Source: Acidimicrobiales bacterium
Lineage (GTDB): Bacteria > Actinomycetota > Acidimicrobiia > Acidimicrobiales > Iamiaceae
Assembly (NCBI GenBank): GCA_035630295.1
Contig: DASQKY010000030.1
Location: 1,426-65,425, forward strand
Length of the DNA stretch: 64,000 bases
Reading direction: 5' to 3'
Each line of letters starts with the position of its first letter. Position 1 is the stretch's first letter. A program made the translations under genes and the position numbers. Below the pieces are notes generated by a model. The model did not search any database, was not told where the DNA came from, and worked only from the letters and a program-made list of their open reading frames with translations. Below are positions 2,883 to 13,790 of the stretch, one piece after another.

Positions 2883-3593
2883 ATGCCGACCAACGCCGCC
2901 TACCACCTCGGGGCCACGTCGAAGCCCATGCCCATGGTGTATGTCGACCCCGAGCGGGCTGTCACCGACGAGCAGCTGGCCGCCGTGGCCGAGGGCACCG
3001 GCCTCAACGGGGCCTTCATCGCCGACGTGCTCTCCGACGCCCTCATGCACGAGCGCTGCGGGTTCCACCTGTACCGCTCGGTGGCGGGGCGCACCAACAA
3101 CCCGATCCTGAAGCGCCGCTACCAGGAGCTCGGCGACGAGACCCTCACCCACGTCACCGTCCTGGAGGAGCTCATCGCCGCCGTGGGCGGCGACCCCGGC
3201 TACGTGAGCCCCGCGGCCCGGGGCACCGAGAAGCTGGACATGGGCGCCCTGGAGGGCTCGTTCATGCTGTCCGGCTCGGTGGACCTGATGACCCAGGAGC
3301 TGATGATGCTCAACGCCGTGGTGCTGGCCGAGGCCATCGACCACGCCAACTGGGAGACCATGGCCGCCCTGGGCGCGGCCTGCCCGGACGGACCGGTGAA
3401 GGACGCCATGGTCCGGGCCGTGGAGCAGGTCCTGCCCCAGGAGGAGGAGCACGTCACCTGGGCCCGCGACATGCGCCAGCGGATGATCCTGCTCCAGGCC
3501 CAGAGCAAGGCCATGACCCGGGTGGGGGCCACCATGGAGACGATGGTGGCCAGGATCAGTTCCATGTTCGACGACGCGCCGGTACCCGGCTGA
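2883..3593 (+). CDS. Ferritin-like domain protein (YciF/rubrerythrin-like)
   Basis: GAGGAG RBS then ATG 2883, inside ORF 1152..3593. Motifs HERCG, DETLTH, LAEAIDH, QEEEH. Confidence 0.75.
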   Translation: MPTNAAYHLGATSKPMPMVYVDPERAVTDEQLAAVAEGTGLNGAFIADVLSDALMHERCGFHLYRSVAGRTNNPILKRRYQELGDETLTHVTVLEELIAAVGGDPGYVSPAARGTEKLDMGALEGSFMLSGSVDLMTQELMMLNAVVLAEAIDHANWETMAALGAACPDGPVKDAMVRAVEQVLPQEEEHVTWARDMRQRMILLQAQSKAMTRVGATMETMVARISSMFDDAPVPG

Positions 3594-3622
3594 CAGCCCC
3601 GATCGGCCGCAGCGCCGCCCGG

Positions 3623-5248
3623 CTACAGGTCGGGCAGGCGCTGCGGCAGGCCGACCAGGGGCCGGAGCGGGTCCCCGGTGGTGGCCAGGCGATCGAGCAC
3701 GGTGCGCACCGTCCACCGGTCGGGGGCGAGGTCGGGGTCGTCCAGCTCCTCCCAGGCGATGGGCACCGAGACCGGCGCGCCCGGGGCGGGGCGGGTGGTG
3801 AACGGCGCCACCAGCGTCTTGTTGATGGCGTTCTGGGTGTAGTCGAGGCGGGCCAGCCCGCCCCGGTCGCGCTTGGTCCAGGCCCAGCTCACCATCTCGG
3901 GCACCACCTTCCCCACCGCCCGCGAGATGGTCTCCACCCACCCCCGGGTGTCGTCGAAGGACGGCCCGGGCGCCACCGGGATCCAGATCTGGATGCCCCG
4001 CTTGCCGGTGACCTTGGCCCCGGCCTGCACGCCGACGCGGTCGAGGGCCACCTTGTGCAGGCGGGCCAGGACGATCACGTCGTCGAAGGTGCTCTTGGGC
4101 CCGGGGTCGAGGTCGATCAGCGCCCAGGTGGGCTGGCGCCAGGCCGAGGCCGGCGACGTCCAGGGGCTGAGCTCGAGGGCCGCGTAGTTGGCCAGCCAGG
4201 CCAGGGCGGGCGGGCTGTCGGCCACGATGTAGGTCTGGGTATCGCCCGGATCCGCGTCCGGGTAGGTCCACCGGGTGATCCACGACGGCGCGTGCGACGG
4301 GGCTTCCTTGTGCCAGAAGCCCGGGCGTTCGACCCCGTCGGGGAAGCGGAGGGTGTTCACGGGCCGGTCGTAGAGGTACGGCAGCAGGGCCGGGGCCACG
4401 CGGGCGTGGTAGCGGATCACGTCGCGCTTGGTCACCGCCTCGCCGCCCTCCCGCCCCGGGAACAGCACCTTGTCCAGGTTGGTGAGCTTGAGGGTCCGGC
4501 CCTGCAGCTCCCACTCGCCCTTGGCCCCCAGCGCGTCGAGGGCGGCCAGCTCGTCGGGGGTGGGCGGGTCCCACGTGGGGATCTCGGGCCGGGCCCCGTC
4601 CGCCATCGCCTCGTCGCCGGGCCCGGCCCCCCCGGTGACCAGGCCCTCGGTCGAGGACCAGGTGGCGTCGCCGGCGGCCCGCACCTCGTCGTTGGTGCGG
4701 CCGGTCTTGACCGAGGTGGGGTGGTCCTCGGCGTCCCAGCCGGCCACGGCGTGGTCGTCGTGCTTGTGGAGGAGCAGCCAGTCGTCGCCCCCGCCCTTGC
4801 GCACGAAGACGAAGCGCCCGGCCAACCGCTCCCCGGCCAGGTCGACGTGCAGGTCGCCACCCTCGACCGCGGCCAGCGGGTCGTCACCCTTCGCCAGCGA
4901 CCACGTGCCCCAGTCCCAGACGATGACGTCGCCCCCGCCGTACTCGCCGCGGGGGATGGTGCCCTCGAAGTCGAAGTAGTCGAGTGGGTGGTCCTCGACG
5001 TGCACGGCCAACCGGCGGGCGTCGGGGTCCAGGGTGGGACCCTTGGGGACGGCCCAGCTGACCAGGACCCCGCCCATCTCCAGCCGGACGTCGTAGTGCA
5101 GGCGCCGGGCTCGGTGGCGCTGGACGACGAAGCGGTGGCCGTCCCCGGCCGGCGGCGGGCCGGCGCCCGCCGGCTCCGCCGTGACCGAGAAGTCCCGCTT
5201 GTCCCGGTAGCGCCGGAGCCGGTCCTCGTCCGGGGGGGTCATGCCCAC
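3623..5248 (-). CDS. LigD-type 3'-phosphoesterase + primase/polymerase fusion, no ligase domain
   Basis: N-terminal YRDKRDF..TAEP, FVVQRH.ARRLHYD.RLE, SWAVPKGP, VEDHP (PE domain). C-terminal LTNLDKVLFP, DLDP, TGKRGIQ, DYTQN, APFTTR (POL domain). Start is 5248 or 5242. Confidence 0.85.
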   Translation of the reverse strand: MGMTPPDEDRLRRYRDKRDFSVTAEPAGAGPPPAGDGHRFVVQRHRARRLHYDVRLEMGGVLVSWAVPKGPTLDPDARRLAVHVEDHPLDYFDFEGTIPRGEYGGGDVIVWDWGTWSLAKGDDPLAAVEGGDLHVDLAGERLAGRFVFVRKGGGDDWLLLHKHDDHAVAGWDAEDHPTSVKTGRTNDEVRAAGDATWSSTEGLVTGGAGPGDEAMADGARPEIPTWDPPTPDELAALDALGAKGEWELQGRTLKLTNLDKVLFPGREGGEAVTKRDVIRYHARVAPALLPYLYDRPVNTLRFPDGVERPGFWHKEAPSHAPSWITRWTYPDADPGDTQTYIVADSPPALAWLANYAALELSPWTSPASAWRQPTWALIDLDPGPKSTFDDVIVLARLHKVALDRVGVQAGAKVTGKRGIQIWIPVAPGPSFDDTRGWVETISRAVGKVVPEMVSWAWTKRDRGGLARLDYTQNAINKTLVAPFTTRPAPGAPVSVPIAWEELDDPDLAPDRWTVRTVLDRLATTGDPLRPLVGLPQRLPDL

Positions 5249-5280: not shown

Positions 5281-5901
5281 TCAGGAGCCGGTGACCTGGT
5301 CCTTGGCCCCCTGGGCCCGCTCGGTGACCTGCTGCTGGGCCTCCTGGGCCCGCTCGGTGACCTGCTGCTGGGCCTCCTGGGCCTGGTCGCGCACCTCGGA
5401 CATGGCCTCGGTGGCGGCCTCGCGCGCCGCGCCGGCCACCTCCTGCCCCATGGCGGTGGCCTGTTCCTGGAGGGGATCCAGGACCTTGCCGGCCACCTCG
5501 ACCTCCTCCCGAGTGGGCGGGGCCATCGACCCGACCAGGACGCCGAGGCCGAAGGCCACGGCTCCCGCGGCCAGGGGGTTGCCCTCGGTGCCCTGCCGGA
5601 TGCGGTCGGGCGCCTGGGCGACCTGGTCGCCGAGCGACGAGGCCGCCTCGGACACCGCCGAAGCCGCGCCGGACACCGTGGAGGTGGCACCCGAGACGCC
5701 CGAGCTGGCGGCGCCCACCGCCTGGCGTGGGGGCCCCATGACCTGGTGGCGGACACGGGTGGAGACTCGACGCACCTTGTCCATGCGGCGACCCACCACC
5801 CGCCCGGGACTGACCCGGTCGCCGATGGCGTCGACCGTGCCCGTCATGCGGGCCCGGGTCTGCTCGATGTCGTGCCTCAACTCCGTCGTTCGCTCAGCCA
5901 C
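5281..5901 (-). CDS. DUF3618 domain protein with ElaB/YqjD-like membrane segment and 11-mer repeats
   Basis: GTG 5901. LRHDIEQTRARMTGTVDAIGDRVSP (DUF3618) and NPLAAGAVAFGLGVLVG. Start overlaps the upstream gene's end. Confidence 0.8.
   Translation of the reverse strand: MAERTTELRHDIEQTRARMTGTVDAIGDRVSPGRVVGRRMDKVRRVSTRVRHQVMGPPRQAVGAASSGVSGATSTVSGAASAVSEAASSLGDQVAQAPDRIRQGTEGNPLAAGAVAFGLGVLVGSMAPPTREEVEVAGKVLDPLQEQATAMGQEVAGAAREAATEAMSEVRDQAQEAQQQVTERAQEAQQQVTERAQGAKDQVTGS
5311..5383. repeat. Perfect 33-bp tandem repeat (about 2.2 copies) encoding QEAQQQVTERA
   Basis: ctgggcccgctcggtgacctgctgctgggcctc at 5311-5343 and 5344-5376, plus a partial copy to 5383. Confidence 0.95.
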
Positions 5902-6275
5902 TGCGCGTCCTCCTTGAGGGTCTGGATGGTCTGCTCCGGCGCCGGGTCCAGCGCCTTCGCCTCGGCCCGTCCCCGCTGGGCGAGGACGGCGGCCGCCGCG
6001 CCGAGCACGGCCGTGACGATCAGGAAGGCCAGCCACGTGGGCATGACCTCGTCCAGGGCGAAGCCCAGGGTCAGCACCAGGCCGATGCCGGCCAGCAGGG
6101 CGACGACGGCCGCGGCCCCGAAGGCCGCTCCCGCCCGCCCGGCCTTGCGGCCCTCGATCTTGAGCTCCTCCTTGGCCAGGTCGACCTCCTGGCGGAAGAG
6201 CGTGGACAGCTCCTGGCTCAGCTCGCCGAGCAGCTCGGGGAGCGAGCGTTCGGGGCGCAGCGGCTCGTCGCTCAT
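5877..6275 (-). CDS. Actinobacterial phage-holin-like (Phage_holin_3_6/YqjE-like) membrane protein
   Basis: SLPELLGELSQELSTLFRQEVDLAKEELK, two TM helices, PEQTIQTLKEDAQWL tail. ATG overlaps the upstream TGA. Confidence 0.8.
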   Translation of the reverse strand: MSDEPLRPERSLPELLGELSQELSTLFRQEVDLAKEELKIEGRKAGRAGAAFGAAAVVALLAGIGLVLTLGFALDEVMPTWLAFLIVTAVLGAAAAVLAQRGRAEAKALDPAPEQTIQTLKEDAQWLSERRS

Positions 6276-6919
6276 GCGCCACCCACCCATCCGGCGGTGG
6301 AGCCGCCGGGATCGGTGCCGGGCATGGCCGGGGGCGGCGGCGGCGACGGGACCGGCGGAGGCAGCGGCGCGGCGGGCGCCGGCATGCCGGCCGCCGGGGT
6401 GGGGGTGACAGCACCGTTGCCGTTGCCGTCGCCCTCGTCGGATCGGGCCTCTCGGCCGGCCCGGGCTAGCCGGCCCACCAGCACGCCGGCGGCGGCGGCC
6501 CCGGCCAGGAAGACCACCGGCCGGCGGCGGGCCATGTCACCGACCTCCTGCACGACGCCCTGGACGCCCATCTCCTCGGCCCGGTCGGCCATCCGGCCCA
6601 GGTGCTCGCTGGCCTGCCGGGCCAGGTCTCGGGTCCGGCCGGCATCGTCGGGCCGGCCGTCGCACAGGGCCTCCAGCTCGTTGGCCGTGCCCCGGGCCGC
6701 ACCGGCCAGGTCGCGCAGGCGCTGCTCGAGCTGGTCGCGCACCTCGCCGGTGGCGGAGTCGAGGACGCCGCGGGCCTGCTCCACGGCTTGGCCGCCCACG
6801 GAGGCGGCCTGCTCGGCGGCGGTGCCCATCACCTCCCGGGCCTGCTCGGCGGCGGTGGAGGCCACCTGCCGGCCCTCGTCGGCGGCGGTGCGCATCGTGT
6901 CGGTCGTCGTGTCGGTCAT
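6272..6919 (-). CDS. ElaB/DUF883-like stress protein with 11-mer repeats
   Basis: GAGGAG RBS, ATG 6919. C-terminal ARRRPVVFLAGAAAAGVLVGRL anchor. Confidence 0.7.
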   Translation of the reverse strand: MTDTTTDTMRTAADEGRQVASTAAEQAREVMGTAAEQAASVGGQAVEQARGVLDSATGEVRDQLEQRLRDLAGAARGTANELEALCDGRPDDAGRTRDLARQASEHLGRMADRAEEMGVQGVVQEVGDMARRRPVVFLAGAAAAGVLVGRLARAGREARSDEGDGNGNGAVTPTPAAGMPAPAAPLPPPVPSPPPPPAMPGTDPGGSTAGWVGGA

Positions 6920-6970: not shown

Positions 6971-6997
6971 CTGCCCGCGGCCCCAGGCGGTGAAACG
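6971..6997 (-). promoter_or_regulatory. Putative SigB/SigF-type promoter (CGTTT-N16-GGGCAG)
   Basis: About 50 nt upstream of ATG 6919; heads the 6919-3623 minus-strand unit. Confidence 0.6.
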
Positions 6998-10915: not shown

Positions 10916-10942
10916 CTGCCCGCCCGGCGCAGGAGTGAAACC
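10916..10942 (-). promoter_or_regulatory. Putative SigB/SigF-type promoter (GGTTT-N16-GGGCAG)
   Basis: About 30 nt upstream of GTG 10887. Confidence 0.65.
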
Positions 10943-12778: not shown

Positions 12779-12804
12779 CTGCCCGCGCTCCCCGGCGGCG
12801 AAAC
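12779..12804 (-). promoter_or_regulatory. Putative SigB/SigF-type promoter (GGTTT-N15-GGGCAG)
   Basis: About 55 nt upstream of the ADH start. Confidence 0.65.
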
Positions 12805-13763: not shown

Positions 13764-13790
13764 GGTTTCACCCGCTCGCCCGCCGGGCAG
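13764..13790 (+). promoter_or_regulatory. Putative SigB/SigF-type promoter (GGTTT-N16-GGGCAG)
   Basis: About 30 nt upstream of ATG 13820. Confidence 0.65.

Follow-up and report, generated by a model that had tools for sequence, protein, structure and literature searches.

The closest described relatives of the locus considered here are the yqjD-yqjE-yqjK genes of Escherichia coli and PA3040-3042 of Pseudomonas aeruginosa. Modules of the YqjD/YqjE type are widespread and stress-induced, yet their mechanism is largely unexplained, and an activity (ribosome inactivation) has been proposed for YqjD and ElaB only. Pro80 of YqjD and the glycines of its transmembrane helix matter for activity, function and dimerisation. 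Genes for DUF883 proteins are syntenic with yqjE- and yqjK-like genes across the family in Proteobacteria, and DUF883 proteins are not reported from Actinobacteria in the published survey (bioRxiv 10.1101/2024.08.16.608256). The proteobacterial relatives have thus been partly studied, and the actinobacterial genes are known from one transcriptome paper, under a holin label. In that work, expression of sigma-H(As) in Actinoplanes sp. SE50/110 causes strong, permanent induction of ACSP50_4921-4923 and ACSP50_3381-3382; the former is one operon encoding a DUF3618 protein, a Holin-X protein and an unknown protein, and the authors read its middle gene as a holin (PMC11205660). Here we describe a three-gene locus of this kind, with genes A, B and C, at positions 5281-6919 of contig DASQKY010000030.1 from an Acidimicrobiales bacterium. 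Positions refer to the window, which is the whole 64,000-nt stretch that was analysed.

The region has a G+C content of 75-77% and holds three overlapping genes on the minus strand, transcribed in the order A-B-C as judged from open reading frames and Shine-Dalgarno sites (Table 1). These are three translationally coupled genes behind a SigB/SigF/SigH-type promoter. We propose, with a probability of roughly 60%, that they form a general-stress operon for a small membrane complex, and that this operon is the actinobacterial version of the yqjD-yqjE-yqjK and PA3040-3042 module.

The link to the proteobacterial module runs through gene B. Its product matches PF07332 (Phage_holin_3_6) with 118.9 bits (E = 1.5e-34) over profile positions 2-115 of 116, far beyond the gathering score of 28.4, and E. 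coli YqjE matches the same model with 75.8 bits (E = 3.5e-21). BLASTP of B against YqjE gives no pairwise match, so that the connection between them is the common Pfam model. A preliminary description of this DNA had likened the locus to YqjD and ElaB, and this analogy is well founded because B and YqjE share a Pfam family. In the B protein, the hydrophobic windows that mark its two adjacent membrane helices lie at about residues 46-78 and 72-102, and the short loop DEVMPT separates them. The same description had also called the middle gene holin-like, a label that echoes the title of PF07332, 'Putative Actinobacterial Holin-X'. Together with the holin-like export roles discussed for the Actinoplanes homologues (PMC11205660), this name is what speaks for a phage-derived holin or lysis cassette, or for a holin-type export device. 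However, none of the three proteins matches a PHROG family, and tblastn of B against 50,697 phage records returns nothing. No lysin is annotated beside the trio in the annotated example loci; the fixed neighbours of B in the 83 loci described below are A and C, and the surrounding genes vary. E. coli YqjE is itself a chromosomal member of PF07332. The holin label therefore has to be dropped and a lysis or export role of this type is very improbable; by its profile match, gene B is a PF07332/YqjE-family member and not a holin.

The A-B-C arrangement is conserved in Actinomycetota. The 83 loci comprise examples from Iamia, Streptomyces and Pseudonocardia and 80 more from a pattern scan with one genome per species; the scan patterns restrict these 80 to Actinomycetota, and genes were matched by local profile searches. 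The order and strand of A, B and C are the same in 78 of the 83. Among the five exceptions, four are stretches too short upstream of B, and the last (L051) has room there and no A match. The loci come from Acidimicrobiia, Nitriliruptorales, Euzebyales, Isoptericola, Kribbella, Rothia, Nocardioides, Knoellia, Ornithinimicrobium and Corynebacterium, and the surrounding genes differ among the three annotated examples. In most loci, from several actinobacterial classes, profile matches give C a start that overlaps the end of B by 19-22 nt; in the window the overlap is 25 nt. Such strong conservation of an overlap is unusual and suggests coupled translation with a fixed stoichiometry. Some Acidimicrobiia genomes carry two full A-B-C copies at distant sites (loci L024 and L025 on contig CAVRCY010000014.1, L034 and L038, and L052 and L055).

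The head of the C protein matches PF12277 (DUF3618) over residues 4-44 (50.6 bits, E = 2.2e-13; gathering score 24.9), and all 114 aligned C homologues match this model. The version of gene C from the gene caller starts seven residues too late; the residues before the caller's start are conserved in the family, with E3, R4 and L8 invariant, and this speaks for the GTG start. Gene A matches no Pfam or NCBIfam family, and its homologues are mostly named 'hypothetical protein'. In Iamia majanohamensis (CP116942.1; L001, 5112-5699) the third gene is called as 147 amino acids with no Pfam match, and its deposited start is probably wrong because the match to the C-family profile begins about 160 nt upstream of it. 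An apparent Holin-X and DUF3618 fusion of 349 amino acids (P0142, from an ENA metagenome contig) has a junction that resembles a frameshifted B C-terminus; it is probably a sequencing or assembly artefact and is not used as evidence. PADLOC matches to a ZorA tail and to LeoBC were set aside as weak and compositional in appearance.

The promoter-like site upstream of gene A and of its Shine-Dalgarno site belongs to a motif class that is enriched both in the window and in related loci. The window contains four instances of GTTT-N14-17-GGGCA where 0.42 would be expected, and none of 100 shuffles reaches four. Of 75 related loci, 17 have a site of this class upstream of gene A, mostly in the GGGTA form, compared with about 0.45 expected from the rest of those loci. 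It agrees with the sigma-H motifs reported for Actinoplanes and Streptomyces, the former being (G/C)GTTT(A/C) ... GGGTA (PMC11205660). The four sites in the window have the form GTTTC(A/G)C-N-GGGCA and lie at 6972-6996, 10917-10941, 12780-12804 (-) and 13765-13789 (+). By sequence they would fit a shared SigB/F/H-type regulon within the first 19 kb of the window. The sequencing runs found to hold this stretch are two soil DNA metagenomes, with no RNA runs among them.

Both flanking proteins have an 11-residue periodicity, as the preliminary description had stated, and the 11-mers that it quoted stand where it had put them. The identity autocorrelation peaks at lag 11 in residues 1-100 of A (z = 6.0) and in residues 121-206 of C (z = 7.7), and in neither protein do any of 2000 shuffles match the maximum z. 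The hydrophobic-moment spectra have their maxima at 97-98 degrees (p(max) <= 0.007 against shuffles), which is the value of an 11/3 helix (98.2) and not 100. A quantitative check of 11/3 amphipathicity had been named beforehand as the test that could overturn the claim, and this peak upholds it. The moment peak falls at 95-100 degrees in 94% of 120 A homologues and 99% of 116-120 C homologues, no homologue of either protein has its peak at 100-105 degrees, and the strongest repeat lag is 11 or 22 in most members of both families. In A, the amphipathic 11/3 phase runs on to about residue 130, beyond the repeats at residues 11-76.

Helical wheels drawn at 11/3 for each pooled family, an analysis that had been suggested along with the original claim, give a conserved amphipathic pattern. 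The apolar face is narrow and mostly Ala, and Val or Leu predominates at one position in each turn-set; Lys and Arg gather on one edge, and the polar face has Asp and Glu at its middle. Ala, Gln, Glu, Val and Thr are abundant in the repeat regions, where aromatic residues are very few. In E. coli, YqjD and ElaB (genes at 3376-3681 of locus L004 and 1723-2028 of locus L005) have moment peaks at 97-98 degrees in their cytoplasmic domains as well (p = 0.01-0.03), and YgaM has its peak at 100 degrees. Hendecad amphipathicity may therefore be a common property of the YqjD/ElaB-type class of proteins.

The repeat array of gene C changes in units of 11 codons. Codons 174-184 and 185-195 are identical at 33 of 33 bases, which bears out the perfect duplication noted earlier, and the unit that follows this pair is identical to it at 24 of 33 bases. 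In close relatives of C the tails end 5, 16, 27 and 38 residues beyond a common alignment column. The duplicate and these steps of 11 together show change by whole units, in line with the expansion that had been read from the duplication. Over all 114 C homologues, tail length modulo 11 is not clean (chi-square p = 0.004, with p of about 0.03-0.1 for other moduli), and variation by 11-residue steps is claimed for the close relatives only. Tandem Repeats Finder reports period-33 arrays in both genes, at 5289-5383 in C (2.9 copies, 93% matches) and at 6806-6896 in A (2.8 copies, 75% matches). The linker of C has a different periodicity (lag 7, z = 5.3), contains a 21-bp tandem repeat at 5638-5678, and differs in length among homologues.

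The repeats had been described as like those of late embryogenesis abundant (LEA) proteins. The tandem 11-mers and the 11/3 amphipathic helix sustain this comparison, but LEA_4 (PF02987) does not match A or C at E values up to 10. Below the model's threshold, 3 of 114 C-family members match LEA_4 at E < 0.01, the best at 0.0021. The Apolipoprotein model (PF01442) scores 23.6 bits with A and 32.3 bits with C, far under its gathering score of 90 bits, and gives sub-threshold matches to 28 of 113 A-family and 109 of 114 C-family members. Further sub-threshold matches in the two families are to ApoLp-III and YtxH and, in a few members, to DUF883, LEA_4, CsbD and HSP12. Since the LEA_4 and Apolipoprotein thresholds are not reached, the resemblance is one of helix class and not of ancestry.

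If A and C were true LEA-type anhydrobiosis protectants, their 11-mers would be disordered when hydrated and would fold on drying to protect membranes and proteins. The 11/3 periodicity, the abundance of Ala, Gln, Glu and Thr, the scarcity of aromatics, the stress-type promoter, the soil metagenome source and the sub-threshold LEA_4, HSP12 and CsbD matches of some family members are all compatible with this idea. Dure is said to have described, in 1993, striped charges on the 11-mers of group 3 LEA proteins, which would count in the same direction. However, A and C have no LEA_4 match and are membrane-anchored, unlike classical LEA proteins, and the C tail is modelled by AlphaFold2 (AF2) as a confident helix. 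Hydrophilins are soluble proteins with a hydrophilicity index > 1 and a Gly content > 6%. The soluble repeat regions of A and C are less hydrophilic than this (grand average of hydropathy, GRAVY, of -0.67 and -0.83; Gly 9.2% and 5.8%), and each protein has a membrane segment. No desiccation expression data were found. A classical LEA function is accordingly quite improbable, and the stress-operon reading is preferred.

The membrane anchors of A and C resemble those of YqjD and ElaB. The hydrophobic segments at residues 134-152 of A and 109-127 of C have 19-residue Kyte-Doolittle means of 1.82 and 1.77. P134, L138, G145 and R150 of A are invariant in its family, with G140 and R131-R133 nearly so. 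The C family has invariant G113, A116 and G120 and a nearly invariant P109. Both proteins thus have the YqjD-type trait of a helix-breaking proline beside a glycine-rich membrane helix. In hhalign comparisons with aligned YqjD, ElaB and YgaM sequences, residues 5-128 of C are colinear with YqjD 7-99 (E = 0.0014), and residues 124-152 of A align with YqjD 70-98 (E = 0.0013). The scores of 26-28 are 6-8 standard deviations above column-shuffled controls (11.5 +/- 2.3). The earlier claim of an ElaB/YqjD-like segment therefore stands as far as the proline, the glycine-zipper resemblance and these scores go, but the E values reach only about 1e-3. The DUF883 (PF05957) and DUF883_C (PF19029) models do not match A or C at E up to 10, and PF05957 matches 7 of 114 C-family members and 1 of 113 A-family members at E < 0.01. 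Homology of A and C to DUF883 is consequently unproven, and the proposed functional analogy is well supported.

These similarities raise the question of whether the proteins tether ribosomes to the membrane for hibernation in stationary phase, as proposed for YqjD and ElaB, with the C head, the N-terminal part of A or both binding near the tunnel exit. A partner gene in the YqjE family and the YqjD-type proline and glycine-zipper anchors would fit this function, as would the basic DUF3618 head in the window (net charge about +6 by residue count over residues 1-55) and the C-family members that match the DUF883 N-terminal domain. JGI also names many C homologues 'ElaB/YqjD/DUF883 family membrane-anchored ribosome-binding protein'. 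However, A and C of the window do not match either DUF883 model, the median head charge of the C family is only +2, and the 11-mer tail of C probably does not lie in the cytoplasm. Overexpression of Pseudomonas PA3040 and PA3041 does not inhibit growth, which implies that function is not uniform even among closer relatives. Ribosome hibernation is therefore unlikely to be the role of this operon, and we return to the proposal of a membrane complex that serves general stress.

AF2 models built with the family alignments support long helices in both flanking proteins. In C, the head forms two helices over residues 2-55, the linker has a predicted local distance difference test (pLDDT) score below 50 over residues 68-87, and the membrane helix spans 109-126; a single continuous helix follows at 131-205 with mean pLDDT of 76-96 in 10-residue blocks. 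The model of A has a helix at 5-86, a turn at 87-94, a second helix at 95-132, a kink at P134, the membrane helix and a non-helical Pro-rich tail, with pLDDT of 88-92 over residues 61-140 and mostly low confidence in the tail. Foldseek against the PDB finds nothing usable for either model, as expected with extended helices. Net-charge bias predicts an N-in topology for C in 71-73% of its family against 9-11%. With C oriented N-in/C-out, its DUF3618 head would be cytoplasmic and its acidic hendecad helix would lie at the outer face of the membrane. The hendecad region of A is probably cytoplasmic, by analogy with tail-anchored YqjD. In the proposed complex, four membrane helices would pack through glycine zippers, and the long helices would either run along the surface of the membrane or form right-handed coiled coils in pairs. 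They may thereby stabilise or organise this membrane when cells are in stationary phase or meet osmotic or drying stress.

Several results weigh against this proposal. The hhalign probabilities are 17-18% with E of about 1e-3 and do not establish that A and C are homologous to DUF883. A circular permutation of YqjD gives alignments equal to or better than those of the native order, which indicates that the DUF883 signal comes mainly from the anchor and otherwise from generic helix. No similarity to YqjK was found in A or C, and neither protein is tail-anchored, since about 60 and 80 residues follow their membrane segments. The topology of A is ambiguous, because Lys plus Arg counts favour N-in and net charge does not, and its hydrophobic core is just 15 residues long. 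The hendecad regions are net acidic (median -7 on the C side), which counts against spontaneous binding to anionic membranes, and the hydrophobic moments of whole segments are modest (0.17-0.28). Formation of an A-B-C complex is something that we infer from synteny and gene overlap only, and there is no published functional study of any actinobacterial member.

The same charge and moments bear on a second structural possibility, in which the hendecads are right-handed coiled-coil stalks similar to the ATP synthase subunit b dimer; they would make A and C form homo- or hetero-oligomers and hold something at a set distance from the membrane, and would not be lipid-surface or LEA-like helices. 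In favour of stalks are the narrow, Ala-rich apolar face, which has a single large residue in every 11, the net negative charge of the helices, and the two long helices that a turn joins in the A model. A sequence-profile search of the PDB with the A family gives weak matches to ATP synthase subunit b (E = 8e-4 to 7e-3) and to antiparallel coiled coils of designed proteins (E = 5e-7), and A has weak NCBIfam matches to F0F1 subunit B and V-type subunit E. Hendecad right-handed coiled coils have been described in rotary ATPase stalks (PMC3293630, PMC6131620). However, these matches are weak and possibly compositional, and the equivalent search with the C family instead gives weak matches to apolipoprotein A-I, apolipophorin III and SHERP. 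If A and C are both N-in/C-out, then the membrane separates their two arrays, and one cannot pair with the other. The stalk arrangement is a tentative alternative that is somewhat improbable overall; it keeps this standing because the net negative charge and the modest moments count against strong membrane binding in the hydrated state.

A more specific form of the stress-operon reading is a two-sided scaffold. The YqjE-type hairpin would nucleate the assembly, the LEA-like helix of A would lie on the cytoplasmic leaflet and that of C on the outer one, and repeat slippage would adjust their length in steps of 11 codons. The scaffold would be turned on by stress sigma factors and would keep the membranes of soil actinobacteria intact during drying or osmotic shock. 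This version is a long shot. If it is true, then the scaffold is a membrane-anchored bacterial analogue of the LEA proteins of plants and animals, and it gives the unexplained YqjD/YqjE module a physical mechanism.

The features of the locus are collected in Table 1. A LigD-like gene with phosphoesterase and primase-polymerase domains and without a ligase domain lies at 3623-5248 on the minus strand and begins 32 nt past the stop of C. No terminator-like site was found between the two genes, so they may be co-transcribed here. LigD was rejected as a conserved partner of the trio, as it is nearby in just 2 of 83 loci and on the opposite strand.

Table 1. Positions of genes, protein segments and other features of the A-B-C locus in the window.
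Feature	Position	Strand	Description
Promoter-like site	6971-6996	-	SigB/SigF/SigH-type, GTTTCA-N16-GGGCAG; upstream of gene A
Gene A	6272-6919	-	215 aa; GAGGAG 5 nt upstream of ATG; without Pfam or NCBIfam model
Gene A repeats, residues 11-76	6692-6889	-	Six 11-residue units, TAADEGRQVAS ... QRLRDLAGAAR
Gene A membrane segment, residues 134-152	6464-6520	-	PVVFLAGAAAAGVLVGRLA
Gene A tail, residues 157-215	6275-6451	-	Pro/Gly/Ala-rich, variable in length; predicted non-helical, mostly at low confidence
Gene B	5877-6275	-	132 aa; PF07332; two membrane helices; starts at an ATGA that overlaps the A stop codon
Gene C	5281-5901	-	206 aa; DUF3618; GTG start after AAGGAGG; 25-nt overlap with B
Gene C head, residues 1-55	5737-5901	-	DUF3618, two helices
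Gene C linker, residues 62-90	5632-5718	-	Ser/Ala/Gly-rich, 7-residue periodicity
Gene C membrane segment, residues 109-127	5521-5577	-	PLAAGAVAFGLGVLVGSMA
Gene C hendecad array, residues 130-206	5284-5514	-	Seven 11-residue units
Perfect tandem 33-bp duplication	5317-5382	-	AQEAQQQVTER encoded twice (gene C)

New in this analysis are the quantitative, family-wide 11/3 amphipathicity of both flanking proteins, together with that of YqjD and ElaB, the evidence for unit-wise repeat expansion, and the enrichment of a stress promoter across related loci in the phylum. The placement of the two hendecad arrays on opposite sides of the membrane is also new and is likely. The actinobacterial version of the module is conserved throughout the phylum, and the genera that have it include some with model species, for example Streptomyces and Corynebacterium; the choice between a membrane-surface helix and a right-handed coiled coil is a testable structural hypothesis. 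The analysis also corrects a misleading 'holin' annotation, which has already shaped the reading of transcriptome data.

Comparison with known systems separates what the locus shares with each from what sets it apart. Like F-type ATP synthase subunit b, the flanking proteins combine a single anchor with a long, Ala-rich, 11-periodic helix, but the matches are weak (E = 1e-3 to 1e-2), the gene context is another one, and the anchor follows the helix instead of preceding it. They share tandem 11-mers, an apolar face of small residues and striped charges with group 3 LEA proteins, apolipoprotein A-I, apolipophorin III and SHERP; unlike group 3 LEA proteins and apolipoproteins, they are membrane-anchored and net acidic, and their matches fall far under the family thresholds. 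Compared with YqjD, A and C are twice as long, and in contrast to the tail-anchored YqjD and ElaB, A ends in a Pro-rich tail and C in a helix. They score below the DUF883 Pfam models, and the locus has nothing like YqjK. The genes of Actinoplanes ACSP50_4921-4923 and 3381-3382 are of the same kinds, and the sigma-H motif reported there matches the promoter-like site described here, a likeness drawn from annotation and transcript data only. As in YqjD, ElaB and YgaM, the flanking proteins are single-pass and helical with a conserved proline beside a glycine-zipper membrane helix, and the moment peak at 97-98 degrees is that of the YqjD and ElaB cytoplasmic domains. Stress control is a further common trait, with RpoS reported for YqjD, envelope stress for PA3040-3042, and a SigB/F/H-type promoter here. 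The locus also has the plan of E. coli yqjD-yqjE-yqjK and P. aeruginosa PA3040-3042, in which three tightly spaced genes have a PF07332 protein at their centre.

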